From: a virus
Lineage: Duplodnaviria > Caudoviricetes
DNA: 62,583 nt
Strand: one strand, 5' to 3'
IMG/VR virus record: IMGVR_UViG_3300049015_000009
Span: 1 to 62,583 of that record
The notes under the pieces are model-generated. The model saw only the letters and a program-made list of their open reading frames with translations, was not told the origin of the DNA and did not search any database. A program made the translations under genes and the position numbers. Positions within the stretch are counted from its first letter, which is position 1. Each line of letters starts with the position of its first letter. Below, in pieces: positions 31,950 through 61,077 of this stretch.

Positions 31950-31964
31950 GCGTCCGGAGGACGC
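31950..31964 (-). promoter_or_regulatory. GGA-triloop DNA hairpin (vRNAP-promoter-like)
   Basis: + strand GCGTCC-GGA-GGACGC; lies just upstream of a terminator. Confidence 0.45.
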
Positions 31965-31975
31965 CTGTGGTCAGC

Positions 31976-34117
31976 TCATCGCTTGGCCAGGTTCTTGGCG
32001 ATCGTGATCATCACCGTGCTCATGATCTCGGCCTCGTCCAGCTTGTCGGGGATCTTGCTGTTGAGCTCCATCACCTTCACCCGGATGGCTTCAAACTCGA
32101 AGCCAGCATCCAGCAGGATCATTCCGTAGCGGAGGATCATGTTGTTCCGGTTGCCGTCACCAATGTTGTTGATCACCCAGCGCTCGAGGTTGTCCATCGC
32201 CTGCTGTGAGTCCAGCAGCTGCTTGCGCTCTTCGTTCTTGCTGGTCTTCGGAATGAAGGGCAAGACGTCCAACACTTCGCCTTCGTTGTACTCATAGTGA
32301 CCCGGATGGGTCAGCCACTTGCGTTCACGTTGGCCAGCACTGCGATCCACCTCGAAGGGAAGCCAGTCGAAGATATTCGTCATGAACTCTTTGTAGTCCT
32401 TGCCGTCCATCTTCAGCTCGTAGTTCGTGGGCATGATGACCCTGAACCGGTTCTCTTCATCGGTGTTGCGCTTGGTGGTGTAGACCAAGAACTTGTAGTT
32501 CTTCAGCAGCAGCTTGACCGTACTCAAGGCCACACCGCCATCCACGTCGATGACCACCAGGTTGAAGCCAGGGATGCAGTTCTCCCCGTTGCGGTAGCCC
32601 TCGTTGAGGTGATGAGCAACCCAGTGCATACCCGGTGCTTGAGTCAGCTTGTAGAGCTGGTCAAACGGGGCGCGTTCGTTCTGGTAGCCCGTGGTGATGT
32701 CGTTGCTGTAGGACACGATCATCTTCTCAAGGTCGGTCACTTGCAGGGCTTCGCCCCTCAGGAACTCGATGCCGTCCGAGAACGACTTCTTGATGATGAT
32801 GTTGTTCTTGTATCCCCAGGCAATCGCCATGTTGAGCATCTCGGTCCTGGCTCCGGTACCACCCTTGTAGAAGGGGAGGTCCTCGGCCAGGTCAGCATGC
32901 GTCACATCCTCACCCACCATCGCCACATACTTGGCCAGCTTCATGAAGGCCCGGTCCTGTGCCAGCATGAGCTGGAAGGCTTCTCCTGAGTCCTCAGCCA
33001 ACTTGATGGCGTTGTAGACGTGGTTCTCGGTGACCTCGGGGCAGTCATCGATGAAGGCGTAGGCCCCCGCCAACTTGAGCACCTTGAAGTAGCGCTCACC
33101 CATCTCACGGATCTGCAGCTCCTTCTGGTCGGTCAGCTTCTGTGCCCTGGTTTCGCAGTGCAGTTGATACTCGTTCAAGAGGATGCAGGTCTCCTTCTTG
33201 ATGACCAGCTTCTTGTTGGCGTTGATGATGTCCGCCAGTGCCTCGAATCGGTTGGCCAGCTCAGCCACCTTCTGGGTGTTGTTCTGGCTCGTCCGATCCA
33301 GGTACATCTGCTCTGCAGTCCGGTTGGGCATCCGTGCTGCGTTGCGGACGTATCCGAAGAAGCAACGACGTGCATAACCAGTGCCCAGCATCTCACGGAG
33401 CTCATCCTCGGTCTTGGCACCGTCGAAGACACGTCCAGGCACACCGAACATCAGCATGTTGGCTGGGGTCTGACCCACGATCTCCTCACTACGGATGCTG
33501 TCCGTCGTATTCTTGATCAGCTTGGACTTGACCAGGCCCTTGTCGTACAGCTCGATGAAAGTCTCAAACGCTTCCTTGTTGGGGATCAGGTTGCTGCCCA
33601 CCTCATCCATGATGAGATTGAGCGAGCCTGCGTTCGACATCAGGAGCTGGTGACGCAGCTGCTTGATCGCCGGTGAGGTTGCAGAGTCGAAGCTGAACAG
33701 GGGAGCACCCAGTCGCTCAAACTCCTTGGTCACACGGGCCAGCTCATCGTCTGGATCAGTGCTCTTGCGGATGGCACGCTTGTTGGCGAGCTTGGGCAAG
33801 TTCTGTTCAGCCAGGATCGTGTACGTCTCTTCCAGGAACCGATGGCGGAACAGGCCCAGCACATCACCCTCGATGAGGTTCATGGACTGTGTCTTGCCAT
33901 AGCCCGATGGAGCCAGGTTCAACACATACATGTTGACCGGAATCTCTCCACGGTCAGGGGTGAGGATGCTGCACCTCATCTGGCTTGCGGCCAGGCTGAA
34001 GTAGAAGCCGACCATCAGGCGGAAGAACAGGGAGTCGTCTCGTTGCGTATGGTCTCGGAGTACCTGAACCAGTTCTTCACTGGTGGCGTGATACTCCATC
34101 TCGTCGAATGGTTTCAT
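31976..34117 (-). CDS. DNA primase (N4 gp43-like)
   Basis: APSGYGKT P-loop, VIDVDGG primase motif, GNRNN C-terminal domain. Confidence 0.88.
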   Translation of the reverse strand: MKPFDEMEYHATSEELVQVLRDHTQRDDSLFFRLMVGFYFSLAASQMRCSILTPDRGEIPVNMYVLNLAPSGYGKTQSMNLIEGDVLGLFRHRFLEETYTILAEQNLPKLANKRAIRKSTDPDDELARVTKEFERLGAPLFSFDSATSPAIKQLRHQLLMSNAGSLNLIMDEVGSNLIPNKEAFETFIELYDKGLVKSKLIKNTTDSIRSEEIVGQTPANMLMFGVPGRVFDGAKTEDELREMLGTGYARRCFFGYVRNAARMPNRTAEQMYLDRTSQNNTQKVAELANRFEALADIINANKKLVIKKETCILLNEYQLHCETRAQKLTDQKELQIREMGERYFKVLKLAGAYAFIDDCPEVTENHVYNAIKLAEDSGEAFQLMLAQDRAFMKLAKYVAMVGEDVTHADLAEDLPFYKGGTGARTEMLNMAIAWGYKNNIIIKKSFSDGIEFLRGEALQVTDLEKMIVSYSNDITTGYQNERAPFDQLYKLTQAPGMHWVAHHLNEGYRNGENCIPGFNLVVIDVDGGVALSTVKLLLKNYKFLVYTTKRNTDEENRFRVIMPTNYELKMDGKDYKEFMTNIFDWLPFEVDRSAGQRERKWLTHPGHYEYNEGEVLDVLPFIPKTSKNEERKQLLDSQQAMDNLERWVINNIGDGNRNNMILRYGMILLDAGFEFEAIRVKVMELNSKIPDKLDEAEIMSTVMITIAKNLAKR

Positions 34118-34149
34118 TGGGTCCTTTCTCTTGGGTTGATGGTCTGGGT

Positions 34150-35136
34150 TCAGCCCATCACCAAGTCGCCGGAGGCGACAAGTCGATCCTTCTGAGTGCA
34201 GACACCGAAGGCAGGGCAGTACTTGCAGGCAGTCACTTCACCTGGCTTCTCCTTGATGAGTCCCACGCTTCCGTCTTCCACGAAACGCATACGTGCTTCC
34301 AGCATCGAGTCGAAGTTCTTGGTGCTGCGCAGGGTCTTGGCCGGGTTCTTGTAGTACTTGAACACCGGCTCACTGCGCCACAGTTCCTCGTCGTCACACT
34401 CAGGAATGTCCTTCTCATCTGCGTCCCAGTAGGTCTCGATGAGCTGGAGCTTCTTCTTGATGAACTGCTCAGTCTCTTGGAGAGAGAGCAGGGGATGTGA
34501 CTGACGATGGAAGCGACGTGGTGGGTACTGGGGATCGCTTCGCTGCATCCCGGCCTTCCAGTCAGTGAAAATAAAGTGGATGTCCATCTCGTCCTGGGTG
34601 ATCTTCTTGGGATCAAGCCAGCGGTAGATGGATCCCTGCTGGGAGTACTTCCCTGCGTTGACCTGGTTCTTGTAGGTCCACACCGAGGTGCTCTTGAAGT
34701 CCTGCACCTTGCCTTCACCGATGAAGTCGAACTTGCCGGTGATCGTCCACTTTCCTAGCTTGCGCTTGAGGCGCTGCTCAAGGTAGATGGGGATGATGTC
34801 GTCGGTGAGGTCTTCTGGTGCTGGGTTGATGCGGATACGGTCGATGACCCTGGCTGGGTAGCCCAGAGCTTCCATCGCAGCCTTGTGGTTGTGCATCCAG
34901 GCACGTTCGATGCCATCGTGGATGGCTGTACCCATCCGACTGTTCATCATGTCTGCCAGGTTGGGCAGACCATCACCTGGAGGCAACCGTGCAGGCAGGA
35001 TGACCTGACGCAGTGGCTTCAGCAGGGATGTAGCGCTGATCTCTGTGGGGTCGCTGCTGTGGTCGTAATGGTCCGTGGCCAGGAAGACAGCGAGTGCCAG
35101 TGGCACATCACCGACGTTGGCATATTGAGCTGTCAT
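34150..35136 (-). CDS. PD-(D/E)XK nuclease (N4 gp42-like)
   Basis: ISATSLLKP, GTAIH, GKFD..DFK, C-terminal CxxC..C. Confidence 0.85.
   Translation of the reverse strand: MTAQYANVGDVPLALAVFLATDHYDHSSDPTEISATSLLKPLRQVILPARLPPGDGLPNLADMMNSRMGTAIHDGIERAWMHNHKAAMEALGYPARVIDRIRINPAPEDLTDDIIPIYLEQRLKRKLGKWTITGKFDFIGEGKVQDFKSTSVWTYKNQVNAGKYSQQGSIYRWLDPKKITQDEMDIHFIFTDWKAGMQRSDPQYPPRRFHRQSHPLLSLQETEQFIKKKLQLIETYWDADEKDIPECDDEELWRSEPVFKYYKNPAKTLRSTKNFDSMLEARMRFVEDGSVGLIKEKPGEVTACKYCPAFGVCTQKDRLVASGDLVMG
34165..34179 (-). promoter_or_regulatory. GGA-triloop DNA hairpin upstream of primase
   Basis: + strand GTCGCC-GGA-GGCGAC. Confidence 0.5.
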
Positions 35137-35145
35137 TGATTTCCT

Positions 35146-35397
35146 TTAGGAGGTTGATACACCTGCCAACCGCTCAGCAGCACGCTTCAACTGGTCGTTG
35201 AAGTACCTGCGAATGAGGTAGGACCTGGCCACCGATACCACGGTGAACAACATGCCCATGGCGAAGTTCTGAGACAGGCTTGGCCTGGGTAGTCCCACCA
35301 TCGGCAAGATGATCAGGTTGAAGGCGAAGTTGATGCCGAAGCCGATGGCCACGTTGAACCACGCCTCGATGAATGACTGGAGGCGTGTTTGCGTCAC
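35146..35397 (-). CDS. Small two-TM phage membrane protein
   Basis: QTRLQSFIEA..N...GF, SVARSYLIRRYFN. Confidence 0.75.
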   Translation of the reverse strand: MTQTRLQSFIEAWFNVAIGFGINFAFNLIILPMVGLPRPSLSQNFAMGMLFTVVSVARSYLIRRYFNDQLKRAAERLAGVSTS

Positions 35398-35900
35398 AGT
35401 TGCTTCTCCTTGCGACGCAGGATCAAGTCCAGCCGAGCCAGGGCGTTCCAGGCTTCATGCGCTGCGTGCTCTTCTTCGCTGTCGGGGTCGAACTCGACAC
35501 CCGTCTTCTCAGTGAGCCAGTGACGCAGCTTGGCGTCGTCGTAGCGAGCTTCACCGTTGGGAACCACCATCCAGCCGTTCTCGGTGTACTTGACGGCACC
35601 AAAGGTTCCGATGCGCGAGACAGCCAGGAGTGCCCGTGCAAAGCCACCGAGGACCAGGGCAGGGCGTACCTTGCCTGCATCCAGCTTGGCACCTGGTGCG
35701 TTGGCGGAGAGACCGTTGGGATCTTGTTCCTTGAGCTTGAATCCACCAGGAGGCACGACTGCCATGGGGCCATTGGGTATCAAGTTCGGCATCGACATTA
35801 CCCCGACTCTTGTGTGTATCGGCTGCGGCGGGGTTCGGCCCACGACCATGTCGAGTTCGTGTTGAGAGAGGTGCTTGTTGGTGTCTTCGGTGATCTTCAT
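35394..35900 (-). CDS. dATP/dGTP diphosphohydrolase-like (DUF5664-type) protein
   Basis: GAKLDAGK, FGAVKY..NGW, RH..DPDS..HAAH..WNAL; start uncertain. Confidence 0.8.
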   Translation of the reverse strand: MKITEDTNKHLSQHELDMVVGRTPPQPIHTRVGVMSMPNLIPNGPMAVVPPGGFKLKEQDPNGLSANAPGAKLDAGKVRPALVLGGFARALLAVSRIGTFGAVKYTENGWMVVPNGEARYDDAKLRHWLTEKTGVEFDPDSEEEHAAHEAWNALARLDLILRRKEKQL

Positions 35901-36226
35901 GTGTTTGGTTTCTCTTGGTTCAGTTGAAGCCACCGTGTGAGTGCATCTCGTGCTTCACGGATGTCTCTGGGGGCGGTGATTCGGTATGTGCCTGTCATCA
36001 AGAGCTTGCTGATGGCATGCTGCAGACAACCTGATGGGTCGTAGATCTGGAACAGGTGGTTGACCCCGAAGGCATCCACTTCTGTCATGTCTCCAACGGA
36101 TTTGTAGCTATTCGGGTGTTTGGTCGAGTGTTCCAGCTCACCATCTTTGTTGAGACAGATCCCGCAGAAATCTGAGCCGGTTTCTACAGGGTGTGAGCAC
36201 CCTATTGATTTGCAGTAAGGGGTCAT
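35897..36226 (-). CDS. Hypothetical protein (LQHAISKLL family) with N-terminal Cys cluster
   Basis: CxxxxC..CxxC, then DPSGCLQHAISKLL..DIREA. Confidence 0.6.
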   Translation of the reverse strand: MTPYCKSIGCSHPVETGSDFCGICLNKDGELEHSTKHPNSYKSVGDMTEVDAFGVNHLFQIYDPSGCLQHAISKLLMTGTYRITAPRDIREARDALTRWLQLNQEKPNT

Positions 36227-36281
36227 GGGGCCTTGCTTGATTGCGAACTCCCGAAGGAGTTCGCGGGTAGTACTTAGAGGG

Positions 36282-38225
36282 TCAGAGGATTTCGCATACG
36301 CCTGCGCTACACGCGAGTTCACGGGTACTCACACTGGTGTCATCACGCTCAAGCGCAGCGAGTTGGTCCCAGTCGAACGTGGGCATCTTGGCCAGCAGAG
36401 CTTCGTAATCCTCTTTGCTGCACTCCGTGTATGGAGCTTGCTTGTAGGAGTGGTCGCTGTGAGGCAAGAAGCTCACACCGGCCAGCTCATCGAAGTGCTT
36501 GTAGACCCAGGCACCGACCTCCAGCCATTCGTGATCTCGCACGTAAATCGTGTTGGACACGTTGTGCTCGCTCCAATGACGTTGGAACATCAGGTAGTGC
36601 TCGAGCTGCTCAATGGCAGTCCGGTCGTTTCGGAAGACCGCTTGATCAGGTGCCTTGACCGGGAAGCTAAACACCGTGGTGCTGTGTTCCTTGCCGAAGG
36701 CAGGCTCAGCCGGGAATCCCTGTTGCAGCATCAGCTGGGTCAGGGGATCCTTGTTGTCACCACGTACCGTGCGGATGTAGTAGTGGGCATAGCGCTCATG
36801 CTTGCCAGAGGCAGAGTCCACCAGCTGGCTGACGGTGCCGGAAGGCTTCACCGTGGTACCAGCAGCACAGGGATTGATGCCCAGCTTCTTGGCCCACTCA
36901 GCGTTGACATTGATGCACTGTTGCTTGAGCTGCTTGAGCCAGCTGATGGAGAGCTCACTGACTTGGCTCAGGACCGGATGGTCCATGATCCCTGTCATCG
37001 AGACACCCAACAGACGCTCTTCTTCTTGGTTCTTCTTCCAGCCTTCACGCACGTAGCGGAAGTTGGTCAGCATCGACTGGTAAGTACCTGTGATGGTAGC
37101 CACACGGACCTTGTCCATCAGGTCGATCAGAGAGTCTTCTGCACGAATCACAACCTCGGTGAGGTTGCACAGACCCATGGAGCGGAGAGCGATCTCTGCA
37201 CAGGGATTGGTACCCACGATCTGGCTTGCATCACGACGACCGTTCTCGGCACCCTTCTTCTGGGCAGCAACACGGTTGTAGATGCCACGCTCACCGCTCT
37301 TAGATTCGATGAGGGCCAGCCACTCCTTCATGAAGATCTCGGACTGGGGACGCTCCGTGTAGACCGCTGAGTTGTTGGCCAGAGCACGGTGACCGTACTG
37401 CTCCCACCACATGCCCGACTTGGCCACACGCATGCGGTCATCGGACAGGTTGGAAAGGCTGATCAGTGCTGAGCGACGCACACCACCGACTACGACGATG
37501 TCTGCGATCTTGCAGACCAGGTCATGGCACTCGATGGAGGTCAGTCGACGACCGACAGCATTCTTGAAGGTGGTGACAGCGAAGTTGAAGAGATCAACCA
37601 AGGGCTGGGGACCAGACGCTCGGCCACCGAAGATCTTGAGCTTGGCGCCAGCAGGGCGGATCTTGCTGACATCCCAGCTGGGGATCTTGCCGCTGTAGAG
37701 GTACTGGAGCAGCTCCTTCAGGGCACCAGCCCAGCCACCCTTTGAATCACGGACCACGATGGTGTGATCCACGGGCACCAGCTCTTCAGCGATGTGAACC
37801 TGCACCTGGTTCTGAGCATCCAGCTTGACGCCAGCGCCGACCACGGGGAGCTTGGCGATGAACTGACGCTCAACGCTGAAGCCAACACCGGTGCCACACA
37901 TCAGGATGTAGAGGATCTCGTCGAAGGCTCGGACATGGTCGACTGCCACGAAGCTGCAGTTGAAGCCAGCCATCGGATCTCGTTCCAGTGCAGGGCCAGC
38001 CGTCATCAGGGCACGCATGCTGGGCATGGTTCCCAGGCTCACGATCGAGTCGTAGATCTCCTGCTTGGGGTAATGGGGGAACTTGCTGTCGAAGTAGTCG
38101 ACATACCGCTGAACGGTCTCATCCCAGGATTCACGACGGCCTTTGGCCTGGTTCCACTTGGCATATCGGCTCTTGTGGACGTATTCCTGCAGGGGTGTTG
38201 GAAGGTGATTGGTGGGTTGCTGCAT
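36282..38225 (-). CDS. nrdJ: Class II (B12-dependent) ribonucleotide reductase
   Basis: FNCSF, TNPCAEI, LCNLTE, TVKPSGT, C-terminal CSAGVC; no beta-subunit gene nearby; start MQQPT inferred. Confidence 0.9.
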   Translation of the reverse strand: MQQPTNHLPTPLQEYVHKSRYAKWNQAKGRRESWDETVQRYVDYFDSKFPHYPKQEIYDSIVSLGTMPSMRALMTAGPALERDPMAGFNCSFVAVDHVRAFDEILYILMCGTGVGFSVERQFIAKLPVVGAGVKLDAQNQVQVHIAEELVPVDHTIVVRDSKGGWAGALKELLQYLYSGKIPSWDVSKIRPAGAKLKIFGGRASGPQPLVDLFNFAVTTFKNAVGRRLTSIECHDLVCKIADIVVVGGVRRSALISLSNLSDDRMRVAKSGMWWEQYGHRALANNSAVYTERPQSEIFMKEWLALIESKSGERGIYNRVAAQKKGAENGRRDASQIVGTNPCAEIALRSMGLCNLTEVVIRAEDSLIDLMDKVRVATITGTYQSMLTNFRYVREGWKKNQEEERLLGVSMTGIMDHPVLSQVSELSISWLKQLKQQCINVNAEWAKKLGINPCAAGTTVKPSGTVSQLVDSASGKHERYAHYYIRTVRGDNKDPLTQLMLQQGFPAEPAFGKEHSTTVFSFPVKAPDQAVFRNDRTAIEQLEHYLMFQRHWSEHNVSNTIYVRDHEWLEVGAWVYKHFDELAGVSFLPHSDHSYKQAPYTECSKEDYEALLAKMPTFDWDQLAALERDDTSVSTRELACSAGVCEIL

Positions 38226-38305
38226 TGGAGGTTGGGGCTTTCTGTTCCTGGTTTGAGACTCCAGGTACCGGTAGGAATACCCAGTACCCGGTATTTGTCG
38301 AGAGA

Positions 38306-38318
38306 ATGCCGGAGGCAT
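38306..38318 (-). promoter_or_regulatory. GGA-triloop DNA hairpin upstream of nrdJ
   Basis: + strand ATGCC-GGA-GGCAT, intergenic if start is 38225. Confidence 0.5.
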
Positions 38319-38378
38319 CTCCCTAAACTCAATATCTACTGAGGGGCGCGGAGTTTACTCAGATACTGAGTTTCAGTA

Positions 38379-39014
38379 TTACTTTTGAGTAAGCGCCTGC
38401 CAAGATGTCGGAAATAGTGGGCTGATGATCTCGTCCCACTGAGCAGCGAGCTGTTGGATCTCTGCCTGGGCATGGGAATCTGCACGAAGGCCACGTGCTC
38501 GTGCAAATGCAGCCAAGGAACCGGTGACGTAGTAACTGGTCAGCATGGACTGCGGAAGCGTCATCCGAGCCTGCTCTGGAGCAACACCACAAGCGATCAT
38601 GTTTTCATAGACAGCGATCGCATTCTTGATGTACTCGCTGTAGATACTGGAAAACATTCCGCTGTCAGGGTGAGTATCCCCGCTACCTTGCTTCATGCTC
38701 CCACCAGGACGGCTACGCCATTCCTCAGGGAAGTGAAACTCAGGGGTGTCGTCGACATACCTCCGACTCACCTCGTTGTAAGTGAAGCCCACGACGTGCT
38801 TGAACCGCTGTCGAGCCACGAAAATCGGCACGGTTTCCCGCAATGTGATCTGCGGATGGGTAAACGGGGTGAAGTGATTATGTTTGGCAAGGTAAGCGAT
38901 CAACCGTTCGTCCTGGCTATCCAGGCCAAAACTCTCCTTGTTGAAACTCACGCGGGCACTGTTCACAACAGTAAGGTCGCTACCCATGTGGTTTACATAT
39001 TCAGCCTTGATCAT
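38379..39014 (-). CDS. thyX: Flavin-dependent thymidylate synthase
   Basis: VNSARVSF, HFTPF, RQRFKH..NEVSRRY, EQARM, HAQAEI. Confidence 0.95.
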   Translation of the reverse strand: MIKAEYVNHMGSDLTVVNSARVSFNKESFGLDSQDERLIAYLAKHNHFTPFTHPQITLRETVPIFVARQRFKHVVGFTYNEVSRRYVDDTPEFHFPEEWRSRPGGSMKQGSGDTHPDSGMFSSIYSEYIKNAIAVYENMIACGVAPEQARMTLPQSMLTSYYVTGSLAAFARARGLRADSHAQAEIQQLAAQWDEIISPLFPTSWQALTQK

Positions 39015-39080
39015 TTGTACTTTCTAGGGTTGGTGGTGGAATAGTTTTAAACTGTGGGGATATTCAGAAGGAATCCCCAC

Positions 39081-40826
39081 ATGAGCTGTGTAGGTAATAC
39101 TTGCGGGGTTGGTGGTTGGGGTGGACCCCTCCCAGGTGACCCAGGTAATAACTCCATCCTGACGGCAACGCCGGCGTTTGGGGGTATCGACGTCGCCTGG
39201 ACGTATCCAACGACGAATCCGTGGGCGGTTGCTTACACCAAGGTGTACCGAGGGCTGACGTCGAATTTCAACTCAGCCCTTCTGTTGAAGGAAACCTCGC
39301 ATACCTTCTGGTATGACAAGATCGAAACCACTACCAGGTATTACTACTGGATCAGGATGGTTTCGGTGAATGGCACCGAAGGTGAGCTCATCGGTCCTGC
39401 TACTGCGGTTGCCAAGCCAACCATCGCAGGAATGATTGAGTTCCTGACTGGGCAGATTGATGCTGGTCTCCTGGCTACTGCGCTCAAGGAGAAGATCGAT
39501 TACATCGATGTCTTAGCCAACGGCTTGGCAGCTGAGGTCACCGACCGTGAGAACGGGGAAACCACATTCGCTGAGGCCATTGCTGATGTGCAGGCGGGCA
39601 TCGCCGAAGCACACACGTTCATCTTCAATGAGACGGAAACCAGGACCACTGAGTACGGTGCCCTGGTGGATCAGATCACCGGTGTCGCTGCGACAGCTGG
39701 TGACGCCCTGATCGCTGCTACTGAGACGATCACCGGCTACATCGATACCCAGCACGGCATCGCCATGGCTGCGATTGACGCTGTGGTTGGCACTATCGGT
39801 GGAGACATCGCCTCAGTAATTGAGGCGATGAGTGTCCAGATCAGCACACTGGAGGACAGTGTTGACGATCCCATCACAGGTATCGCTGCCACCAACACCC
39901 GGATCAACGCGCTCTATACCGTCAAGCTGACGGTGAATGATTTGGTTGGTGGCTTCGGCCTGGCCAACGATGGCCATGTTGTTGAGGCTGGTTTTGATGT
40001 CGACACCTTCTGGGTGGGAAGAACTCAAGCCAATAAACGCAAGCCGTTCATCATTGCTGACGGCGTGGTGTATCTCGACGAGGCAGTTATCAATTCGCTG
40101 CAGTTCAGCAAACTGAAAAACGAATCCGGTAGTTTTGTAGTCAGCTCAGGGAAACTGAATAGTACTTATGTGGATCCAGCCAGTGAATGGCTGAACAGCA
40201 ATCAGCAATGGGCTGATGTGACCGGCACTGGTAAGCCAGCTGATGGAGCTACGGTTGGTGCCCCCGCTGGTACCTATGTGGGGAGCAATCTAGCTCAGGA
40301 CCTGGAAACGCTGGCAGGGGCTCAAGCCAAAGCGAATGCTGCAGCAGAAGCGGCTGTGAACGCTGCAGCTATTGCGGCCCAGACCAAGGCTGATCTCGCA
40401 GAAACAACGGCAAAGGCATATGCAGATGGCATCGTTACTGCCGAAGAAGAACGTGCAATTCTTGATGCTACTAACAAGGCAAACGCAGCAAGGATTGCTG
40501 CTGAGGCAGCAGCTGCATTGGATGCAACTGCCAAGGCAAATGTGGCTGCAACTACAGCTAACTGGTCTGGAGTTTCTGGCAAGCCATCGTTTGGTGCCTT
40601 CGCTACGTTGAATCAGATCACCAGCGTTGATGTCAGCACGTACATCGCGGCAGCTGCGATTGACTACACACGGATCGGTGTTCTGCAAGCAGCCAACCTG
40701 TCCATCGTTGCCCTGTCGGACACGATCAATGGTGGTGTGAACTCAGGCGCTCACATCGAGGCAACCAACAACCGCATGAGTGGATATGCCAGCTCAGGCG
40801 CTGAACGCTGGAGGCTGAGCGCCTGA
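39081..40826 (+). CDS. Tail fiber/host-specificity protein
   Basis: FN3-like N-terminus, VGGFGL..FDVDTFWV..PF (J-like), Ala-rich stalk; AAGGA SD. Confidence 0.75.
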   Translation: MSCVGNTCGVGGWGGPLPGDPGNNSILTATPAFGGIDVAWTYPTTNPWAVAYTKVYRGLTSNFNSALLLKETSHTFWYDKIETTTRYYYWIRMVSVNGTEGELIGPATAVAKPTIAGMIEFLTGQIDAGLLATALKEKIDYIDVLANGLAAEVTDRENGETTFAEAIADVQAGIAEAHTFIFNETETRTTEYGALVDQITGVAATAGDALIAATETITGYIDTQHGIAMAAIDAVVGTIGGDIASVIEAMSVQISTLEDSVDDPITGIAATNTRINALYTVKLTVNDLVGGFGLANDGHVVEAGFDVDTFWVGRTQANKRKPFIIADGVVYLDEAVINSLQFSKLKNESGSFVVSSGKLNSTYVDPASEWLNSNQQWADVTGTGKPADGATVGAPAGTYVGSNLAQDLETLAGAQAKANAAAEAAVNAAAIAAQTKADLAETTAKAYADGIVTAEEERAILDATNKANAARIAAEAAAALDATAKANVAATTANWSGVSGKPSFGAFATLNQITSVDVSTYIAAAAIDYTRIGVLQAANLSIVALSDTINGGVNSGAHIEATNNRMSGYASSGAERWRLSA

Positions 40827-40827
40827 T

Positions 40828-41865: not shown

Positions 41866-41874
41866 AAGAACTCT

Positions 41875-42531: not shown

Positions 42532-42532
42532 C

Positions 42533-42580: not shown

Positions 42581-42583
42581 AAT

Positions 42584-52609: not shown

Positions 52610-52628
52610 GGTGTATTGCTTGGTTTGG

Positions 52629-52919: not shown

Positions 52920-52928
52920 GGCAGTGCA

Positions 52929-53414: not shown

Positions 53415-53434
53415 TGGGTTACCTCAGTTTGGTT

Positions 53435-53593: not shown

Positions 53594-53614
53594 GTTGGTT
53601 CCAGAAACAAAACA

Positions 53615-53638
53615 GCCCTCCGAAGAGAGCTGTTTGTT
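53615..53638 (-). terminator. Terminator-like hairpin with UUCG loop
   Basis: Minus strand CAGCTCTC-TTCG-GAGGGCTG followed by T-rich tail starting just left of these coordinates. Confidence 0.55.
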
Positions 53639-53651
53639 CAGTGCCGATCGA

Positions 53652-54968
53652 TCAGGCCGTGGCGGCTTGCTTGACCAGCTTGGTGGGTACAGACCACTGA
53701 CGACCCTTGACGGCAGTCGGGTTGCGCAGGATGTCGCTCTGCTTGATGCCGTGGGCACCAGCGAAGATGCGAGCGTCTTCACGTGTATCGAAGAACTGGA
53801 ACTGCGGAGTCACCGGGATGGGGCTCTTGGTCGGACGGTTGGACACCGGGACCTGGGGCAGCGTCAGCACCGGGGGTGCAACGGGAGCTGCTCCCGGAGC
53901 CTTCGGTTGCAGGTAGGCCAGATCAGCTTCCGTGAACGGGACACCGATCTCCTTCCAGTACACGACACCCGTGCCACCTACCAGCTTGCGGTTGACCGAC
54001 TCCGACTGGATGAACAGATCGAAGTTCTTGTGGTCACCCGGATGCAGGCGAGCGTTGCGATCGCTCGGCAGGCCGATCATCTTCCGGGCTTGCGCACCGG
54101 CGAAGATCTTGCCCGAGGCACGATCACGCACCAGAACTTGCTTGGTGTGGGAGACCTTGGACTCGGTCTTGGTCAGCTGGTAGAACGCAGCACCCTTCAG
54201 ATACTCCATCCGGTGCTCCAAGATGAACGGACGGATCTCGATGCCGTGTTGGTCGTGCGGCACCACGTACAAGCTGACGTCCTTGGAGATGTCCTTCAGA
54301 GCCGTGATGTCGACCTTGGAGGCATCGGTGTAGAAGCTCGAGGACGACTTGGCACCAGCACTGCGAGCAGTGAAGTAGGTGTTCATGGCCTGGGTATTGA
54401 CCCGGGTCGATGCTTCCATGCCAGCTTCGGTGGTGTCCCAGAACTGGATGTTGCCCTCATGGATGCCAAGTGCCTTGATCGTGCTAACAGCACCCGTCTT
54501 CGGCAGACGGAACACGAAGGTCCAGCGACCGGTAGCGTTGACCTTGGCGATCAGTTGCTTCAGTGAGGCCTCCGTGTAGACCGAGCTGTGGGCTTCCTCA
54601 CCATCCGTGGTCACCATGACCAGCATGGACACGTTCGGATCGTTAGCATCCGGCAGGCTGCTGAGCAGCTCGATCATGTTGCCGATGCCGTCGTACAGCG
54701 GGGTGCCGCCTTGCGTCGACCAATCGGTGATCGGCTTCAGCACGTGGGGGTTGGACACCTGCACTTGGCGGGTGCAGCCGTAGCCTTGACCGCGCAGCGG
54801 TGCATAGCCAACGCCCAAGCCAACAACCGATACAACGGTGTCGAGCATTTCACGGGAAGCTGCGTCCTTGACCGCAGTGATGTTGGCGTTGTAGTCCTTG
54901 ATCGCTGCGAATCGCAGACTGTTCATCGAACCGGAGTGATCGTTGACAAAGCCGATGTAGTTCTTCAT
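53652..54968 (-). CDS. von Willebrand factor A domain protein
   Basis: DHSGSM MIDAS, TPLYD, TTDGEE. Confidence 0.85.
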   Translation of the reverse strand: MKNYIGFVNDHSGSMNSLRFAAIKDYNANITAVKDAASREMLDTVVSVVGLGVGYAPLRGQGYGCTRQVQVSNPHVLKPITDWSTQGGTPLYDGIGNMIELLSSLPDANDPNVSMLVMVTTDGEEAHSSVYTEASLKQLIAKVNATGRWTFVFRLPKTGAVSTIKALGIHEGNIQFWDTTEAGMEASTRVNTQAMNTYFTARSAGAKSSSSFYTDASKVDITALKDISKDVSLYVVPHDQHGIEIRPFILEHRMEYLKGAAFYQLTKTESKVSHTKQVLVRDRASGKIFAGAQARKMIGLPSDRNARLHPGDHKNFDLFIQSESVNRKLVGGTGVVYWKEIGVPFTEADLAYLQPKAPGAAPVAPPVLTLPQVPVSNRPTKSPIPVTPQFQFFDTREDARIFAGAHGIKQSDILRNPTAVKGRQWSVPTKLVKQAATA

Positions 54969-54994
54969 GTTTTCAGTTTGGTTTAGTAGGGACG

Positions 54995-55018
54995 AAAAAA
55001 AGCCACCCGTAGGTGGCT
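54995..55018 (-). terminator. Intrinsic terminator after DNA polymerase
   Basis: Minus strand GCCACC-TACG-GGTGGC-TTTTTTT. Confidence 0.85.
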
Positions 55019-55036
55019 GTGTTGACTGCAGGTGGC

Positions 55037-57712
55037 CTAGGCTGTCTCTAAGACTTTCCCTTTGGCAGCATTGCAGATGTTGGTGATGGTTTCTCGATCA
55101 GCTCCGTTGGGCAGCGTGATCCCGTTGGCCCAACTGGGCCAGAAAATATCCAAAGCAGCACCGAGCTTCACAGTTGGGTGTTGGATCTCAGGCAGTTCCT
55201 GCCATTGCATGCTCTTGATGAGCTCACGGTTGGCCCACTCCACGACTTCAACGTCATCCCTCATGAGGATGTAGATGGCATCGTGGATCAGCCCCACTGG
55301 CTTGATGTCCAGGCGGTACTTGCTGGCTCGGACCTTGTTGAAGAAGTCCACAGCAGCACGGTTGTTGAGCTGACCGTAGGACTGGCCCATGGCATTGCCA
55401 GCGGTGCGCCCTTCAGCTGCTGCCTCGTAAGGCATCTTGGCTCCCCAGACCACTTGACCAAGCAATGGGGTACGGACACGGAGGCCGAAGGCCACAGTGA
55501 CGTACCCATCCTTGGTGGCTTGCTTGAGCCGATCCTGGATGTACTGGTCAGACACCACGTAGAGCTCGTGGTACGCAGCCTCGATACGCTGTGCTGTCTC
55601 CTTGTCCCAGCCTTCGTTGACCATGAGCGTGTGATACGTGCCCTGGTAGGTCAGTGCGAAGGTCGGGGTCTTGGAGTCCTGTCTACGGTGATGGTTCGGA
55701 TGCTTCTTGTCCTTGAGAGCGTTGACGCTCTTGGGGTCATCGATGTCGATATCAGGCATCTCATCACGGTAGTAGTACACAGCACGAAGGCAGTGACCAT
55801 CGAACCCTTGCTCGTATACCTTGAGCTTGTTGGGATCCTTGGTGGTCAGAGCAGAGATGTAGTCCTCAAGCGAGTTGAAGTCAGCACCCCCGAAGAGCCA
55901 CCCAGCAGGGCCAGCGAAGCACTCCTTGATGAGCTTGCCGACCTTCTTCTTGAGTTCACTGCCAGTTGTGCCAGCAGGTAGGTTCTGAAGGTTGGGATCA
56001 CTGCTCGATAAACGGCCGGAGACCGTCCCACCTAAGTTGAAGCTGCCATGCAGCCACCAGAATCCGTCAGCTTTCCTGATGGATTCCTCGAAGGCGGGGA
56101 TGAAGGTGTTGAGTACCTTGGTGACCACCCCATAGTCGATCAACGAAGCCAGTAGAGCCTTGTACTCAGGCACTGTGGTGTGGTTGATCAGCTTCTCGAT
56201 GGTTTCACCACCGGTGGCAGGCAACTTGGTATCCGTGAGGTCCAGGACTGGTAGCCCCATCAACTCATAGAGCAACCGCCTCAGCTGCGGCCCTGAATTT
56301 GGATTGAAGTTCTCGTCATCGAAGGCCGAGAGCTGCTTGGGGAAGATCTTCCCTGGGTTCTTGGCTTTAGCTTTCCTGGCTTCAAAGTCTTTCTCCCATG
56401 AGGTCTCACGCAGGAGCAGGTTCAGGGTGTTGATCACATCGGACTTCAAGATGACGTCCAAGTTCTCTTCCCTGATCATCTCCAGCTTTGCTCTGGCTTC
56501 CTTGACCTTGTCAGGGATCAGCGGCATGCCAGTCAGCTCAGTCTGGATGATGAGCTTGAGGCTGGGCAGGAACAGATCGTTGTAGAGCTCCTCCTGCTGA
56601 TCAGCCACCATGATCGGTGTGTACTTGTCCCGCACGTAGGCCGTGGAGAGGCCGTCAACCAGGTTGTACTGAAGCAGCTTGTCCAGCGGTACTTTGCGGA
56701 TGTCGTTGATCTCCTCGACGGCCCAGTTCCCTGCGAACTCATGAGCTAGTGCCTTCAGACCCAGGACGTTCCCAGCCGTGGAGTTGGTGGCCAGGTAGGC
56801 AATGACTTTGGTATCACCGAAGTGACGGCACATGATCTCCAGACCATCCAGCAGACCTTCTGTGTCCAGGTCATGTTTCATCCACAGGGTGTAGATGATG
56901 ACCTTCACGTCGTAGTCAGCCTTGTGCCAGTGGATGCGGCCTTGGTAGGTCTCAAAGAAGCGCTTCAACAGATCTCGGGTTGGTCCGTGAGGTGCGTAGG
57001 TCCCATGGCATCCCGCCGCCATCTCCTCATGGGAAATGAAGCTCGAGTAGTCACAGGGGAATGCCAGCCCGTTGTGCTTGTCCCAGCAGAAGCTGATGGT
57101 TCCGATGCCTGCCTCGTTAAAACGCAGCGAGAAGGCTTCGATGTCAGCGGTGAGCTCTGGGTATTGGTGCAGCCCTTCCAACGCCTTGGCGATGTCATCC
57201 TGGCCTTCCGGGTAGTAGGCTGAGTGGATGATGGACTGGCCCAGGGGCACATACGTCCCTTGCACAGCCGAAACCAGAGTCCGAAGGCTCATATCGAGCT
57301 TGGCTTGGAGCTCTGGGTTGTAGATCAGTGCTCCGTGGTTCAAGCCCAGGATCACGGTCATGTGCTCGAAGCCCTTGATCTTGCAGGGCAGGGGATAGCC
57401 GAAGTGAGGGTCAGCCTTGGTGACGCCGGCGAGCACCTTGAAGTAGTTGGCATCTGCCACGTACAGGTACTTCGCCTCCAGGGCATGCAGCTCAGGGAGC
57501 AACTTCTCAAGGTATTCCTTGATGAAGGCTGTGGGTGCCTTGCCCTTGTCGTTGTACTCCAGGGTGAATGCGATGACATCGCTGGCACTGACTCCTGCTT
57601 GGGTCAGTGGGAACAGGTAGTTGCTTCGGATGACATCCTTGTTGAATGCCGTGTTCTTCACCAGCAGTGCTACGGGAAAGGTTTCCGAATCTTCAAAGAT
57701 GATGTGTCGCAT
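55037..57712 (-). CDS. Family A DNA polymerase with 3'-5' exonuclease (N4 gp39-like)
   Basis: DIE exo I, TVSGRLSS..PNLQN, DFNSLE, RQDSK..TF...Y, IHDA. Confidence 0.95.
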   Translation of the reverse strand: MRHIIFEDSETFPVALLVKNTAFNKDVIRSNYLFPLTQAGVSASDVIAFTLEYNDKGKAPTAFIKEYLEKLLPELHALEAKYLYVADANYFKVLAGVTKADPHFGYPLPCKIKGFEHMTVILGLNHGALIYNPELQAKLDMSLRTLVSAVQGTYVPLGQSIIHSAYYPEGQDDIAKALEGLHQYPELTADIEAFSLRFNEAGIGTISFCWDKHNGLAFPCDYSSFISHEEMAAGCHGTYAPHGPTRDLLKRFFETYQGRIHWHKADYDVKVIIYTLWMKHDLDTEGLLDGLEIMCRHFGDTKVIAYLATNSTAGNVLGLKALAHEFAGNWAVEEINDIRKVPLDKLLQYNLVDGLSTAYVRDKYTPIMVADQQEELYNDLFLPSLKLIIQTELTGMPLIPDKVKEARAKLEMIREENLDVILKSDVINTLNLLLRETSWEKDFEARKAKAKNPGKIFPKQLSAFDDENFNPNSGPQLRRLLYELMGLPVLDLTDTKLPATGGETIEKLINHTTVPEYKALLASLIDYGVVTKVLNTFIPAFEESIRKADGFWWLHGSFNLGGTVSGRLSSSDPNLQNLPAGTTGSELKKKVGKLIKECFAGPAGWLFGGADFNSLEDYISALTTKDPNKLKVYEQGFDGHCLRAVYYYRDEMPDIDIDDPKSVNALKDKKHPNHHRRQDSKTPTFALTYQGTYHTLMVNEGWDKETAQRIEAAYHELYVVSDQYIQDRLKQATKDGYVTVAFGLRVRTPLLGQVVWGAKMPYEAAAEGRTAGNAMGQSYGQLNNRAAVDFFNKVRASKYRLDIKPVGLIHDAIYILMRDDVEVVEWANRELIKSMQWQELPEIQHPTVKLGAALDIFWPSWANGITLPNGADRETITNICNAAKGKVLETA

Positions 57713-57723
57713 TGGTTTGCATG

Positions 57724-58278
57724 TCAGATCAGCAAGTTGGTGACCAGCCTCTGCTTCATGAGGTTGATCGATTCAGTGTTGTCAGACACCAGCTTCTCAA
57801 CCCGTTCCTTGCTCAGCGTGGTCGTTTGGCAAGGGCAGGTAGCTTTGAGCTTCTGCAGTGGCTGATGAATGGCCTCAGGTAGCACCCTGAAGTAATCAGT
57901 CAGATCACTGGAAGAGTTCAGTACCTTGTTCATGAAGCCAAGCACGTAGGGCAGCTCATGGTAATTGAGCTTGTCCAGGTCACTGAGGTACTCCTCCATG
58001 TCGGCACGGAGTGCCGGCAGGAGGCGGTTCTTCTTCACCGGTGGCGGTGAGGCATCAGCGTTGTACGTGTTGCCCTTGTAGGTGAAGTGCTTGTGAGTGA
58101 AACCACCCATGAGGGTGTTGCGCACGATGAGCGTGTCCAGGCGGGACTTGAACTGACGCTCAACTGGTTGATACAGGTAGGCGTAGAGCGCGTCTTTGAT
58201 GAGTTGCTTGGTGCGTGGATCGTGTTCGAGTTTGTTGCTGTCCATGTGAAGCTCAATGTGATTGGGTTGGATAGCCAA
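57724..58278 (-). CDS. Conserved N4-like hypothetical protein (gp38 position)
   Basis: Between helicase and DNAP; start uncertain. Confidence 0.7.
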   Translation of the reverse strand: MAIQPNHIELHMDSNKLEHDPRTKQLIKDALYAYLYQPVERQFKSRLDTLIVRNTLMGGFTHKHFTYKGNTYNADASPPPVKKNRLLPALRADMEEYLSDLDKLNYHELPYVLGFMNKVLNSSSDLTDYFRVLPEAIHQPLQKLKATCPCQTTTLSKERVEKLVSDNTESINLMKQRLVTNLLI

Positions 58279-58295
58279 CCACAGAGAGGATTGGC

Positions 58296-59597
58296 TTAGG
58301 ATTTGGCAGTGAGATCGCCAGTCAGGTAGACATGGTGGCGAGCTCGAGAAGCACCCACATACAACATGCGAGCTACCTGCTCACCGTCGTGGCACTTGTC
58401 GATGTCATCAAGGTCGATGAACACCTTGTCATAGGTGGAGCCCTGCGCCTTGTTGATCGTGCTGGCATACGCACCACGGAGATCGAACCAACGGTCTTCC
58501 ATCTCCTGCACGACATCGAGCTGATCGTTGTCACGTGCGTACTTGATGGCGGCCTTTTTCTCAGCCAGGCTCTTGGGTACGAAGGAACGCAGCACACCAT
58601 TGACGGTGATGAAGTTGCCGGCCACACCGTGGTGTTCCGTGTCGTTCTCGATCAGTGCGATCTGCACAAGCTCATCGGTCTTGAGACCTTGCTTGCCCAG
58701 CTGCACGAAGGAGTTGTTGACTGCGTAGTCACCCACCTGAAAGTGCGGATCACCCTTGGCCAGGTTGCGCACGTACTGGTTGTAGGCAATGACGCACTTG
58801 TTGGTCCAGCCTAAGATCTTGGAGTCGGAATACCGCCAGTCACTGCGGGTGAACTCTTCCTCGATCGCAGCGTTGAAGGCAGCACGATCCAGACGTTGGA
58901 TGTGGAAGCCATCTGGCTTGAAGGGGGTCCAGTCACCCGAGGTGACGGTGTTCCGCAGCTGCTCAGCCCATGCAGTGATGGGGTGAATCTCTGCGAATCC
59001 ACCTTCCTTCTTGGGTTGACGGACAACCTCGGTTAGAGCTGCACCGGTGAAGCCGGCCTCGAAAACTGGGGTACCCCGTGACTTGACGGGTGTCAGCTGT
59101 GCTGGGTCACCGACGAAGACGATCTTGCAGTCCTTAGTTCGTTTGAACACCAGAGCCAACAGCGGGCTGTCGATATAGCTGGCTTCGTCGATGAAGACCA
59201 CCAGGCGCTCAGGGAGTGTGAAGTTGCTCCGTGGTACCAGCTCCGTGGTGTTGGTCTTGTAGTTCGTGGAGACCCGCAGACCCAGGAATGAGTGGATGGT
59301 GCCTACTTCCAAGCCAGTGATCATGGCCAGGTTCTCAGCAGCCTTGTTGGTGGTTGCCGTGAGCTTGATCTCGTAGGGCCTGGCGCTGGGGTTGATCAGC
59401 TTCAGGGTCCGCATGATGGCCGGGAGGCGATCGATGGCTGTACGAACCAGGGTGGATTTGCCACAGCCTGAGAAACCACGCAGGACGAAGACCTGTTCCG
59501 TGGGGTCCAGGAGGAAGGCGTTGAAGGCGTCGAGTGCCTTCTGCTGATCGCTGGTGAGGGTGAAATTGTCGAAGTCGAGTTCTGCGGTTGATGTCAT
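58296..59597 (-). CDS. Dda/RecD-like SF1B helicase (N4 gp37-like)
   Basis: [41 protein letters not shown]. Confidence 0.93.
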   Translation of the reverse strand: MTSTAELDFDNFTLTSDQQKALDAFNAFLLDPTEQVFVLRGFSGCGKSTLVRTAIDRLPAIMRTLKLINPSARPYEIKLTATTNKAAENLAMITGLEVGTIHSFLGLRVSTNYKTNTTELVPRSNFTLPERLVVFIDEASYIDSPLLALVFKRTKDCKIVFVGDPAQLTPVKSRGTPVFEAGFTGAALTEVVRQPKKEGGFAEIHPITAWAEQLRNTVTSGDWTPFKPDGFHIQRLDRAAFNAAIEEEFTRSDWRYSDSKILGWTNKCVIAYNQYVRNLAKGDPHFQVGDYAVNNSFVQLGKQGLKTDELVQIALIENDTEHHGVAGNFITVNGVLRSFVPKSLAEKKAAIKYARDNDQLDVVQEMEDRWFDLRGAYASTINKAQGSTYDKVFIDLDDIDKCHDGEQVARMLYVGASRARHHVYLTGDLTAKS

Positions 59598-59917
59598 GGA
59601 GTTGGTTGTTGTTGGGCTTTGGCCGCCTCTTTTTGAGCTTCTCGGATGTCATCCACAGAAACATTCATCAGGGCGGCGATCTTGTGGCGCTCATATTCTT
59701 GAGGGGTGATGATTACCGTGGAGATTGAGTCCTTCTTCAGTTCACCAATCCGGTAATCGTTGTAGTAATTCGGTGCAGACTCAGCTTGATTGAGCGCTGC
59801 GAGAATGGTTTGGCCATCCTTAATTGGCACAACGAAGGAGCCAGAGATCTCAATTTGAAGGAAGTTCTCTTTGGGTTTTTCAGCCCTGATCTTCTTTGTT
59901 GCTTCTTCGAGGTTCAT
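59594..59917 (-). CDS. Hypothetical protein
   Basis: 107 aa, coupled on both sides. Confidence 0.7.
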   Translation of the reverse strand: MNLEEATKKIRAEKPKENFLQIEISGSFVVPIKDGQTILAALNQAESAPNYYNDYRIGELKKDSISTVIITPQEYERHKIAALMNVSVDDIREAQKEAAKAQQQPTP

Positions 59918-61029
59918 TGCTTGATCTCGTAGTGAATGACCTTGCCCCGAGGAGGAGTAAAGCCAGTGTTGTTGTGGATGAGATAGAGCGTGTCGCCCTG
60001 GAACTCATTGCCGTAGAAGTTGAACTCCCCGTCACTGAATACCATCAGCAGCTGTGGCTTGTGTTCCTTGGCCCACTCCATGACTGGAGAGATGCAGGTA
60101 CCACCTCGGCCAGTGAACTTGATTCCCATCAGTTCACGGACGCTCTTCACGGTATCCGTGGACTTGATCTCCGTGTCGAACTGGATCAACGTGATCCGTG
60201 ATGGCTTCATCATCTTGAAGATGCCAGCTACCTCAGACACGAATACCTTGAAGTCGTGGTCAGAAACCGAGCCAGAGATATCCACTGCGATGCATAGATC
60301 CATCAGGCTTTCACCCCATAGGGTGGGCATATGGTGCTCAGGGAAGAACCGGCGATTGGGCTTGCGGAATGAGTAGTCCGACTTGTCAAAGGAGCGCATG
60401 TACTTTTGCAGGATGCGATTCCACGGCAGTACTGGATTCAACAAGCCATCGAGGTAGACCTGGATATCACCAGGAATGGTGCCCGGCTTGTCACCGCTCA
60501 TCTTGGATTGGACTGATGCACGGACAAGAATGTCCTCAACCTCACGACGAATCGAATCCGAGATTTCCGGTGTTTCACCGTAAACCAGGTCATCCATCGA
60601 GGGTGAAGGTGGGTCTTCAGGCAACAACTTGTAGACCTCTTCAGTAGACATACCCGCGTACTTGGCATCGAGTAACCAGGTCTTGCCAATCTCGAAACCA
60701 CGCTCATGGAGCTGTTGGTTGATGACGTAGTCACCGGCGACATTCCACTTCCGTGGGTCACGGGCTTGCACACGCTCCATGTGCAGATATGCGACGTGCA
60801 TCGATTCATGCACCAGCAGAGATACCTGGAGTGCCAGGCTGAGGGACATGAAGAAAGCCGGATTGAATCGAATCTCACGGCCATTGGTGCAGGCAGTGGG
60901 GATAGTTTCATCCCAGACGTGCTTCATACTGAAACACACGGTCATGAAGAACGCACTGTCAGGCCGAGCCATCAGTTGGATCTTGGCTTTACTGAGAGCG
61001 TGATGATGGTCTTTAGTGACAGGGGTCAT
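59914..61029 (-). CDS. Metallopeptidase-like plus vWA protein (N4 gp25-like)
   Basis: TACTNG, HESMH, WNVAGDYVIN, DISGS, GRGGT, SDG. Confidence 0.9.
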   Translation of the reverse strand: MTPVTKDHHHALSKAKIQLMARPDSAFFMTVCFSMKHVWDETIPTACTNGREIRFNPAFFMSLSLALQVSLLVHESMHVAYLHMERVQARDPRKWNVAGDYVINQQLHERGFEIGKTWLLDAKYAGMSTEEVYKLLPEDPPSPSMDDLVYGETPEISDSIRREVEDILVRASVQSKMSGDKPGTIPGDIQVYLDGLLNPVLPWNRILQKYMRSFDKSDYSFRKPNRRFFPEHHMPTLWGESLMDLCIAVDISGSVSDHDFKVFVSEVAGIFKMMKPSRITLIQFDTEIKSTDTVKSVRELMGIKFTGRGGTCISPVMEWAKEHKPQLLMVFSDGEFNFYGNEFQGDTLYLIHNNTGFTPPRGKVIHYEIKQ

Positions 61030-61062
61030 TTGTTTCTCTTGATTGGTTCAGTAATTCAGTAG

Positions 61063-61077
61063 GACGCCGGAGGCGTC
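61063..61077 (-). promoter_or_regulatory. GGA-triloop DNA hairpin upstream of the gp25-helicase-DNAP operon
   Basis: + strand GACGCC-GGA-GGCGTC, between int terminator and ATG 61029. Confidence 0.55.

Follow-up and report, generated by a model that had tools for sequence, protein, structure and literature searches.

Template-strand hairpins ahead of replication genes in an integrase-bearing N4-like phage resemble the middle promoters mapped in phage LUZ7

Introduction

The early promoters of bacteriophage N4 are DNA hairpins read by the phage virion RNA polymerase (vRNAP), for which PMC4496689 gives as requirements A or G at -11, G at -10, G at -8 and C at +1, together with a closing C:G pair and a loop with a 5' G and a 3' A for hairpin extrusion, a process described there as supercoil-driven. 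The middle promoters of N4, as outlined in the same text and in PMC9163698, are used by RNAPII with gp2; they are sequence motifs, lack a hairpin and have a T start. Here, we analyze a set of hairpins with a GGA loop that lie ahead of replication genes in IMG/VR record IMGVR_UViG_3300049015_000009, which derives from an N4-like phage; the whole record of 62,583 bp was analyzed and is referred to below as the window.

Hairpin promoters beyond the early region have been described in Pseudomonas phage LUZ7, where ONT-cappable-seq together with primer extension served to map transcription starts (Putzeys et al. 2022; PMC9163698). The main text of that study reports nine early promoters, mostly with a stem of at least 4 bp, a 3-nt loop and a start at a G that lies 13-14 nt from the centre of the hairpin, and four middle promoters, in which a GC-rich stem of at least 6 bp with a loop of 3-4 nt lies about 15 bp upstream of a G start (PMC9163698). 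These middle hairpin promoters are ascribed to RNAPII recruited by Drc (PMC9163698; PMC7145618). The hairpins of the window most likely provide a further example, in a distant integrase-bearing relative, of the hairpin promoters outside an N4-like early region that are already known from LUZ7.

Results

All four GGA hairpins listed in an initial annotation of the window are present on the + strand exactly where it had placed them, each with the core CC-GGA-GG and with stems of 6, 6, 5 and 6 bp, respectively; they are designated here by their first positions, 31950, 34165, 38306 and 61063 (Table 1). Their outer stems vary yet pair perfectly in every case, as the annotation had also stated, and its proposal on polarity agrees with our results, since the + strand is the template for the minus-strand genes around all four hairpins and the orientation of each fits transcription of the minus-strand operons. 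Its further statement that all copies sit at or near gene boundaries applies fully to 31950, 38306 and 61063, which occupy noncoding gaps, and only in part to 34165, which is near a boundary but within coding sequence. The annotation had not listed a fifth hairpin of the same polarity, located at 58002. Like the other four, it lies upstream of middle genes in agreement with their transcription polarity. No such hairpin was found at the tail of either of the two minus-strand arms of the window.

The initial annotation had suggested counting the motif against shuffled sequence, and the outcome of this count depends on the stem. The bare CCGGAGG heptamer is at chance frequency, occurring nine times in the window (six on the + strand, three on the - strand) versus 10.45 +/- 2.79 expected, with 75 of 100 shuffles presenting nine or more copies. 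Hairpins are far above chance: perfect stems of at least 5 bp flank four of the six + strand copies, whereas 1000 dinucleotide-preserving shuffles of the window yielded a mean of 0.166 such CCGGAGG-core hairpins (maximum 2) and none reached four. The wider class of C-GGA-G hairpins with a stem of at least 5 bp is likewise enriched, with nine observed versus 0.68 expected and none of the 1000 shuffles attaining the observed number. The window contains 108 perfect hairpins with 3-nt loops, in which GGA is the most frequent loop sequence (8 cases; TCC accounts for 2). The template strands of the four hairpins, folded as single-stranded DNA (ssDNA), gave energies of -4.8 to -6.7 kcal/mol with z-scores of -1.7 to -4.2. 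A separate observation is that four of the nine C-GGA-G hairpins counted in this excess are inside late genes (portal and vRNAP), at 6581-6595 and 17005-17021 with the minus strand as template and at 19474-19488 and 24297-24309 with the plus strand as template; two are sense and two antisense to the local gene.

To place these elements in context, we compared the window with related N4-like contigs, using four whole records (G001-G004) and 24 primase loci, of which 17 were examined (L019, L020, L023, L024, L026, L030 and L032 lay outside this set). A hairpin located directly after the primase stop codon or before the gene encoding a Sak4-like protein is present in the window and in G001, G002 (identical to L033), G004, L022, L025, L031, L034, L037 and L039, and the post-primase hairpin was detected in 7 of the 17 examined loci. 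The ten post-primase or pre-Sak4 elements define nine distinct stems, all of them fully paired, with a closing C:G pair in 9 of 10 and RNA-sense loops reading TCC, TTC, CTCC, TCCG or TCTC. Stem pairs were counted by script, as a MAFFT alignment of the ten elements put the 3- and 4-nt loops out of register. Counterparts were also found for other members of the set. The gap between ThyX and the ribonucleotide reductase (RNR) gene contains a CC-GGA-GG hairpin both in the window and in G004 (53698-53712), with differing stems and shared upstream sequence, and the integrase-VWA gap that harbors the 61063 hairpin in the window contains, in contig L051, a hairpin with a 5-bp stem and a 4-nt loop. G001 has a hairpin before its ATPase-VWA genes, and both G003 and LUZ7 present a GC-rich hairpin inside the gene corresponding to the gp38-like open reading frame (ORF) that contains the 58002 copy.

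The elements share sequence downstream of the hairpin as well. Sixteen of them define the consensus T-T-C-T-n-C-G-A directly after the stem, and all 16 have a G at a distance of 13-14.5 nt from the centre of the loop. In the window, this box accompanies the 31950 and 38306 copies, and a G is found 13-14 nt from the loop centre at all four hairpins, this being a position in the sequence where the LUZ7 criterion refers to a mapped G start. The early-region hairpins of the relatives present short or TGGCC-type stems, with a TGG start located 10-13 nt downstream of the loop, and their middle-gene hairpins present stems of about 6 bp, the TTCTnCGA box and a G roughly 3 nt further out than the early TGG starts. 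The existence of two hairpin groups would fit two enzymes that differ in the starts they prefer, as those of LUZ7 do.

The same kind of scan was applied to N4 and LUZ7. For N4, we required a perfect stem, a G-N-A loop and a closing C:G pair, and searched positions 1-14000, as a control, and 14001-63000. The control region contains only three hairpins (90-102, 557-573 and 4546-4562), all on the template strand and upstream of gp1, gp2 and RNAP1, which we take to be the places of the early promoters named P1-P3. No C-GGA-G hairpin was found in positions 14001-63000, with 63001-70153 outside the scan, so that, across the 63 kb of N4 covered, the annotation is right in restricting such hairpins to the early region. 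In LUZ7, the scan recovered two hairpins with GTA loops, 33 nt apart, which form the tandem described upstream of Drc in the main text of PMC9163698, and it identified C-GGA-G or 4-nt-loop GC-rich hairpins at 8238 (9 nt after RNAP2), 9521, 18106 (within the gp38-like gene) and 35252 (heading the primase operon), at sites comparable to those of the window hairpins.

Like the LUZ7 middle promoters, the window hairpins are GC-rich template-strand hairpins upstream of middle genes and outside the early region. Three of the four have the stem of at least 6 bp reported for LUZ7 (38306 has 5 bp), and loops are of 3 nt in the window and of 3 or 4 nt in its relatives. In contrast, the TTCTnCGA box of the window clade was not seen after the LUZ7 hairpins, and the window phage differs from LUZ7 in being an integrase-bearing soil relative, with another host and from another clade.

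The hairpins of the window are hence non-random, share one polarity, and have counterparts with varied but paired stems and a common downstream box. Promoter activity, the start site and the identity of the polymerase are what we infer from these features. On balance, we think it probable that the 31950, 38306 and 61063 copies, probably the 58002 copy and possibly the 34165 copy, are DNA-hairpin promoters of the class mapped in LUZ7, serving a phage RNA polymerase and heading middle operons. The + strand, either single-stranded or extruded as a cruciform arm, would form a GC-rich stem capped by a stable C-GGA-G triloop, and a phage-encoded T7-like RNA polymerase would bind this hairpin and begin transcribing in the leftward direction, at a point some 13-14 nt from the centre of the loop. 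The resulting transcripts would cover the minus-strand middle operons encoding Sak4 and the single-stranded DNA-binding protein (SSB), RNR-exonuclease-primase and VWA-helicase-DNA polymerase. By analogy with LUZ7, the middle-stage enzyme would be RNAPII acting with an ssDNA-binding cofactor, both presumably encoded in the approximately 10 kb absent from the window.

Several results bear on this absent region. A search with N4 RNAP2 returned no match in the window and matches in 7 of 7 related records (G001-G007); with L051, RNAP2 is found in 8 of the 8 relatives examined. A PF00940 search of the window also returned no match, but it was uninformative because the control genomes yielded none either. 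The right end of the window cuts a minus-strand ORF and, when contigs of four DNA runs were compared with positions 56000-62583, a near-identical contig was seen to stop at the window end while a 151-nt contig of run X4 continues 88 nt beyond it; no joint to the left end of the window was seen in these contigs. A search for integrases in viral contigs produced 80 loci; judged by the surrounding genes, L051 alone is N4-like, and the remainder are ordinary temperate phages. L051 shows the same integrase-VWA-helicase-polymerase order as the window and, upstream of the integrase, an ATPase gene, a split RNAP2, RNAP1 and early-type hairpins. The cut ORF, the contig reaching past the end, the presence of RNAP2 in relatives and the layout of L051 indicate that the window is a fragment which, most likely, just does not extend to the early region and RNAPII, and the integrase of the window would lie between an unseen ATPase gene and the VWA gene. 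With RNAPII in the relatives and a fragmentary window, there is no gene-content basis for vRNAP having to serve middle genes. Within positions 1-11100 of L051, RNAP2 is in two pieces (2376-3098 and 4241-4765) with a 279-aa ORF between them, and G005 also shows two RNAP2 matches. Three opposite-strand ORFs of L051 (8434-9787) just before the integrase are possibly a lysogeny control module.

The initial annotation had instead proposed that the injected vRNAP itself reads the hairpins, transcribing replication genes directly or making primers beyond the early region. Some features are shared with N4 early promoters: 4 of 4 window hairpins are on the template strand with a stem of 5-7 bp and a 3-nt loop, and 4 of 4 present the loop G(-10) G(-11) A(-12) and the closing pair C(-9):G(-13), matching the N4 requirements as given in PMC4496689. 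Moreover, the TTGG start at 34165 is N4-like and puts a template C at +1, the CC-GGA-GG core is also found in early hairpins of G002 (40328, 42006), and the early hairpins of L051 have GGA loops. Other features differ. N4 has the core GC-GGA-GC, with the G at -8 contacted by residue R904, whereas all four window hairpins have C at this position. The N4 start is a template C (+1) that lies 11 nt from the centre of the loop, and 34165 is the only one of the four with such a C, as the annotation had correctly read from the sequences. Two of the four carry the TTCTnCGA box, which puts the G 3 nt beyond the early TGG starts of G002, G003, G004 and L051, and G003 has GTA loops in its four early hairpins but a GGA loop in its middle hairpin. 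Location differs too, since the hairpins of N4 precede early genes, within its first 5 kb, while those of the window precede middle-type or replication genes in 4 of 4; the N4 middle promoters have the same kind of genes downstream, but without a hairpin. An alignment of the window vRNAP with those of N4 and LUZ7 confirmed the N4 residue numbers (K114, R119, W129, K267/268, K849/850, D901 and R904), but the segments that contact the promoter could not be matched up across the clade and no inference on specificity was drawn. Direct transcription of middle genes by vRNAP is not needed, as RNAPII in 8 of 8 relatives leaves no gap to fill, and this fact, the C at -8 and the LUZ7 precedent of RNAPII with Drc leave the proposal unsupported as it was stated; we regard a role for vRNAP at these sites as unlikely.

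Less probable still is that the hairpins act at gene ends in RNA, with a UCC loop, by stabilizing the 3' end, marking a processing site or stopping a phage polymerase. Many copies do lie 2-15 nt past a stop codon, and several are followed by an intrinsic terminator, as in a compound 3' end. The window hairpins share with intrinsic terminators a GC-rich stem close behind a stop codon, but they lack a T-run, the terminator scan called none of the four, and the actual terminators are separate (31923-31903 and 61132-61112). In the divergent gaps of G003 (38066), G004 (54607) and LUZ7 (35252), moreover, a hairpin heads the operon with no gene upstream on that strand and hence no upstream transcript to end, so that these copies cannot be terminators. 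In G004, where an ORF is inserted between primase and Sak4, the element has stayed with Sak4 and not with the primase end; no copies are found at the tails of the minus arms; and the purine-rich loop (GGA, GAA, GGAG, CGGA or GAGA) is kept on the template DNA, where N4 extrusion, in the account given by PMC4496689, needs C-GNA-G.

A role as replication signals, in which single-strand hairpins load primase or mark origins in the replication arm, appears very improbable: the hairpins do adjoin primase, helicase and polymerase genes, and ssDNA hairpins serve as priming signals in other systems, but their placement shortly before start codons that have ribosome-binding sites, their single, transcription-matched polarity and the LUZ7 starts described in the main text of PMC9163698 fit promoters, and nothing that we found bears specifically on priming. 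Finally, GC-rich codons around Ser TCC (Ala GCC/Gly GGC or Pro CCC/Gly GGG) can create the core without function, and both the chance-level heptamer and in-gene copies such as 34165 or the CC-GGA-GG-type hairpins in the DNA polymerase genes of G001 (65429-65443) and G004 (4838-4850), which encode the motif P-P-S-G-W, are in keeping with chance or a coding by-product, yet this explanation is scarcely tenable for the set as a whole, given that three of the four hairpins are in noncoding gaps, that no shuffle reached four and that the relatives present counterparts with other stems at matching noncoding positions.

Some observations weigh against reading the hairpins as LUZ7-type promoters. The pairing of the hairpins that we scanned in LUZ7 with the mapped promoters rests on the main-text description in PMC9163698. 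Ten of the 17 examined primase loci lack the post-primase hairpin, including those closest to the window by primase (L016, L036 and L038; 75% identity), and the 61063 and 34165 copies have no TTCTnCGA box. A terminator about 25 nt after the 31950 hairpin would restrict most transcripts to approximately 45-50 nt unless the polymerase reads through, in line with the roughly 50-nt RNA that the initial annotation had predicted for this copy. A sigma-70-like site at 38403-38375, upstream of the 38306 hairpin, could serve RNR instead. The 34165 hairpin coincides with the codons GTC GCC TCC GGC GAC (V-A-S-G-D) of the conserved exonuclease C-terminus, and at the exonuclease-primase junction it is conserved in none of 15 relatives, all the while the peptide ASGDL is kept.

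The individual sites differ in what they contribute to the proposed LUZ7-type promoter function. The 31950 element is the best-supported copy, and the G of its downstream box, TTCTTCGACAAA, is a candidate start site. The order of stop codon, hairpin and intrinsic terminator (8-25 nt further on) observed here recurs in L025, L031, L039, L001, G004 (53698 and 13063) and LUZ7 (8238-8292), often ahead of Sak4/SSB genes. This arrangement is perhaps a designed-looking leader, acting as an attenuator ahead of SSB genes or as the source of a short RNA of about 45-50 nt. At 34165, the sequence downstream of the hairpin, TTGGTGATGG, resembles the early-type TGG starts of N4, G002, G003 and L051; this copy may be either a promoter or a coding by-product, and for it alone we consider the by-product reading about evenly balanced with its alternative. 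The 38306 hairpin lies in the ThyX-RNR gap and is followed on the RNA-sense strand by TCTCTCGACAAA; the RNR ORF annotated there likely has its true start at the ATG at 38225, and its profile match sets in at residue 31 of the ORF. The 61063 hairpin follows the integrase stop codon and a clean terminator and precedes the start of the VWA gene, which heads the VWA-helicase-DNA polymerase operon; no sigma-70-like site was found here, and a restart promoter would be expected to have such a layout. Positions 38325-38385 of the window and 53715-53770 of G004, just upstream of the ThyX-RNR hairpin, have a common sequence with the inverted repeat ACTGA...TCAGT and an AATACT -10-like hexamer, and the sole sigma-70-like match of the first minus arm (38403-38375) overlaps it. 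The two minus arms contain one and two sigma-70-like sites, versus 3.9 +/- 2.2 and 4.1 +/- 2.1 expected; the depletion is not significant and was not used as evidence.

Table 1. Hairpins, associated elements and landmark genes of the window, with examples of early-region hairpins from related contigs.
Feature	Coordinates	Strand	Remarks
Hairpin GCGTCC-GGA-GGACGC	31950..31964	+	11 nt past primase stop codon
Conserved box TTCTTCGACAAA	31938..31949	-	Directly after 31950 hairpin on RNA-sense strand; G 14 nt from loop centre
Intrinsic-terminator-like stem and T-run	31903..31923	-	Between 31950 hairpin and next gene (31596-31883)
Hairpin GTCGCC-GGA-GGCGAC	34165..34179	+	In last codons of exonuclease ORF; 47 nt upstream of primase ATG
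Hairpin ATGCC-GGA-GGCAT	38306..38318	+	ThyX-RNR gap
Hairpin CGGCAC-GGA-GTGCCG	58002..58016	+	6-bp stem; inside gp38-like ORF between helicase and DNA polymerase; -8.3 kcal/mol, z -3.96
Hairpin GACGCC-GGA-GGCGTC	61063..61077	+	Between integrase terminator and DUF2201/VWA gene, 33 nt before its ATG
Terminator-like stem and T-run	61112..61132	-	After integrase gene, upstream of 61063 hairpin
vRNAP gene	16643..27208	+	3521 aa; phrog_2206, 1798 bits
DNA primase gene	31976..34117	-	phrog_2135, 1046 bits
Exonuclease gene	34150..35136	-	phrog_2139, 441 bits
RNR ORF	36282..38318	-	phrog_367, 588 bits
DUF2201 metallopeptidase/VWA-like gene (N4 gp25-like)	59914..61029	-	Pfam PF13203, PF09967; phrog_1314
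Tyrosine integrase gene	61152..62225	-	phrog_1; PF00589
Early-region hairpins, G002	40328-42803		
Early-region hairpins, G003			Four, with GTA loops
Early-region hairpins, G004	18007, 18558		
Early-region hairpins, L051	315, 812		

The window constitutes an entire IMG/VR record, classed as linear and with a CheckV completeness of 85%, and the public sequencing runs that contain its DNA are labelled as soil or rhizosphere metagenomes, with no RNA run listed among them. Its + strand encodes, between 190 and 27208, the large terminase, the portal, the major head protein and the 3521-aa vRNAP, which shows 25-41% identity to its counterparts in G001-G004 and the gene for which gave no megablast match to named phages. 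The first minus arm (27407-39014) contains genes for a RuvC-like resolvase, SSB, the Sak4-like protein, primase, exonuclease, RNR and ThyX, and the second (51401-62360) comprises small ORFs and genes for DNA polymerase, a Dda-like helicase, the DUF2201/VWA protein and a tyrosine integrase. Between the two replication arms lies a + strand block (39054-51320) of tail-fibre and lysis genes, an embedded opposite-strand block like that formed by ORF52-59 of LUZ7.

Additional features were noted in these regions. The + strand block ends with a separate gene resembling a DNA polymerase exonuclease subunit (50430-51320, phrog_403), which has a homologue in L051. Positions 52037-52609, in the group of small minus-strand ORFs, encode a 190-aa protein with an Nmad5 domain (nucleotide modification associated domain 5; PF18757, 42 bits), which hints at DNA base modification. 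Upstream of the integrase, the heptamer GTGCTAC is present in four copies in 62232-62477; 7 of its 11 copies in the window fall in 61259-62477, and the total of 11 compares with 5.4 expected. These copies may be arm-type or regulator sites.

Discussion

Integrase genes have been reported in uncultured N4-like genomes, according to the text of PMC10654107, and the presence of one in the window places its hairpins in a setting that differs from that of LUZ7. For temperate N4-like phages, the question arises of how transcription starts after induction, when no injected polymerase is at hand, and both the hairpin sites and the missing early region bear on it. One conceivable answer, which we regard as improbable, is that a single C-GGA-G code is read by both enzymes, by vRNAP after infection and by RNAPII after prophage induction, with the hairpin-terminator arrangement operating as a timing attenuator for the late switch. 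If such a dual-reader code were true, a temperate N4-like phage would start its replication genes without the virion enzyme by means of dispersed hairpins.

The reading of these elements as LUZ7-type middle promoters also adds to what is known of this promoter class. The experimental basis for hairpin promoters outside an N4-like early region consists of one LUZ7 study and its four middle promoters, to which comparative support from distant, uncultured soil relatives is now added. Besides the varied but always paired stems at matching positions, this support comprises a putative clade-specific start box and the recurrent leader in which a hairpin is followed by a terminator ahead of Sak4/SSB genes. 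In N4, SSB switches on late transcription. For genome annotation, template-strand C-GGA-G hairpins are usable as promoter markers in the N4-like family, with the caveat that Ala/Pro-Ser-Gly codon runs can mimic the promoter core, so that copies inside genes can be by-products.

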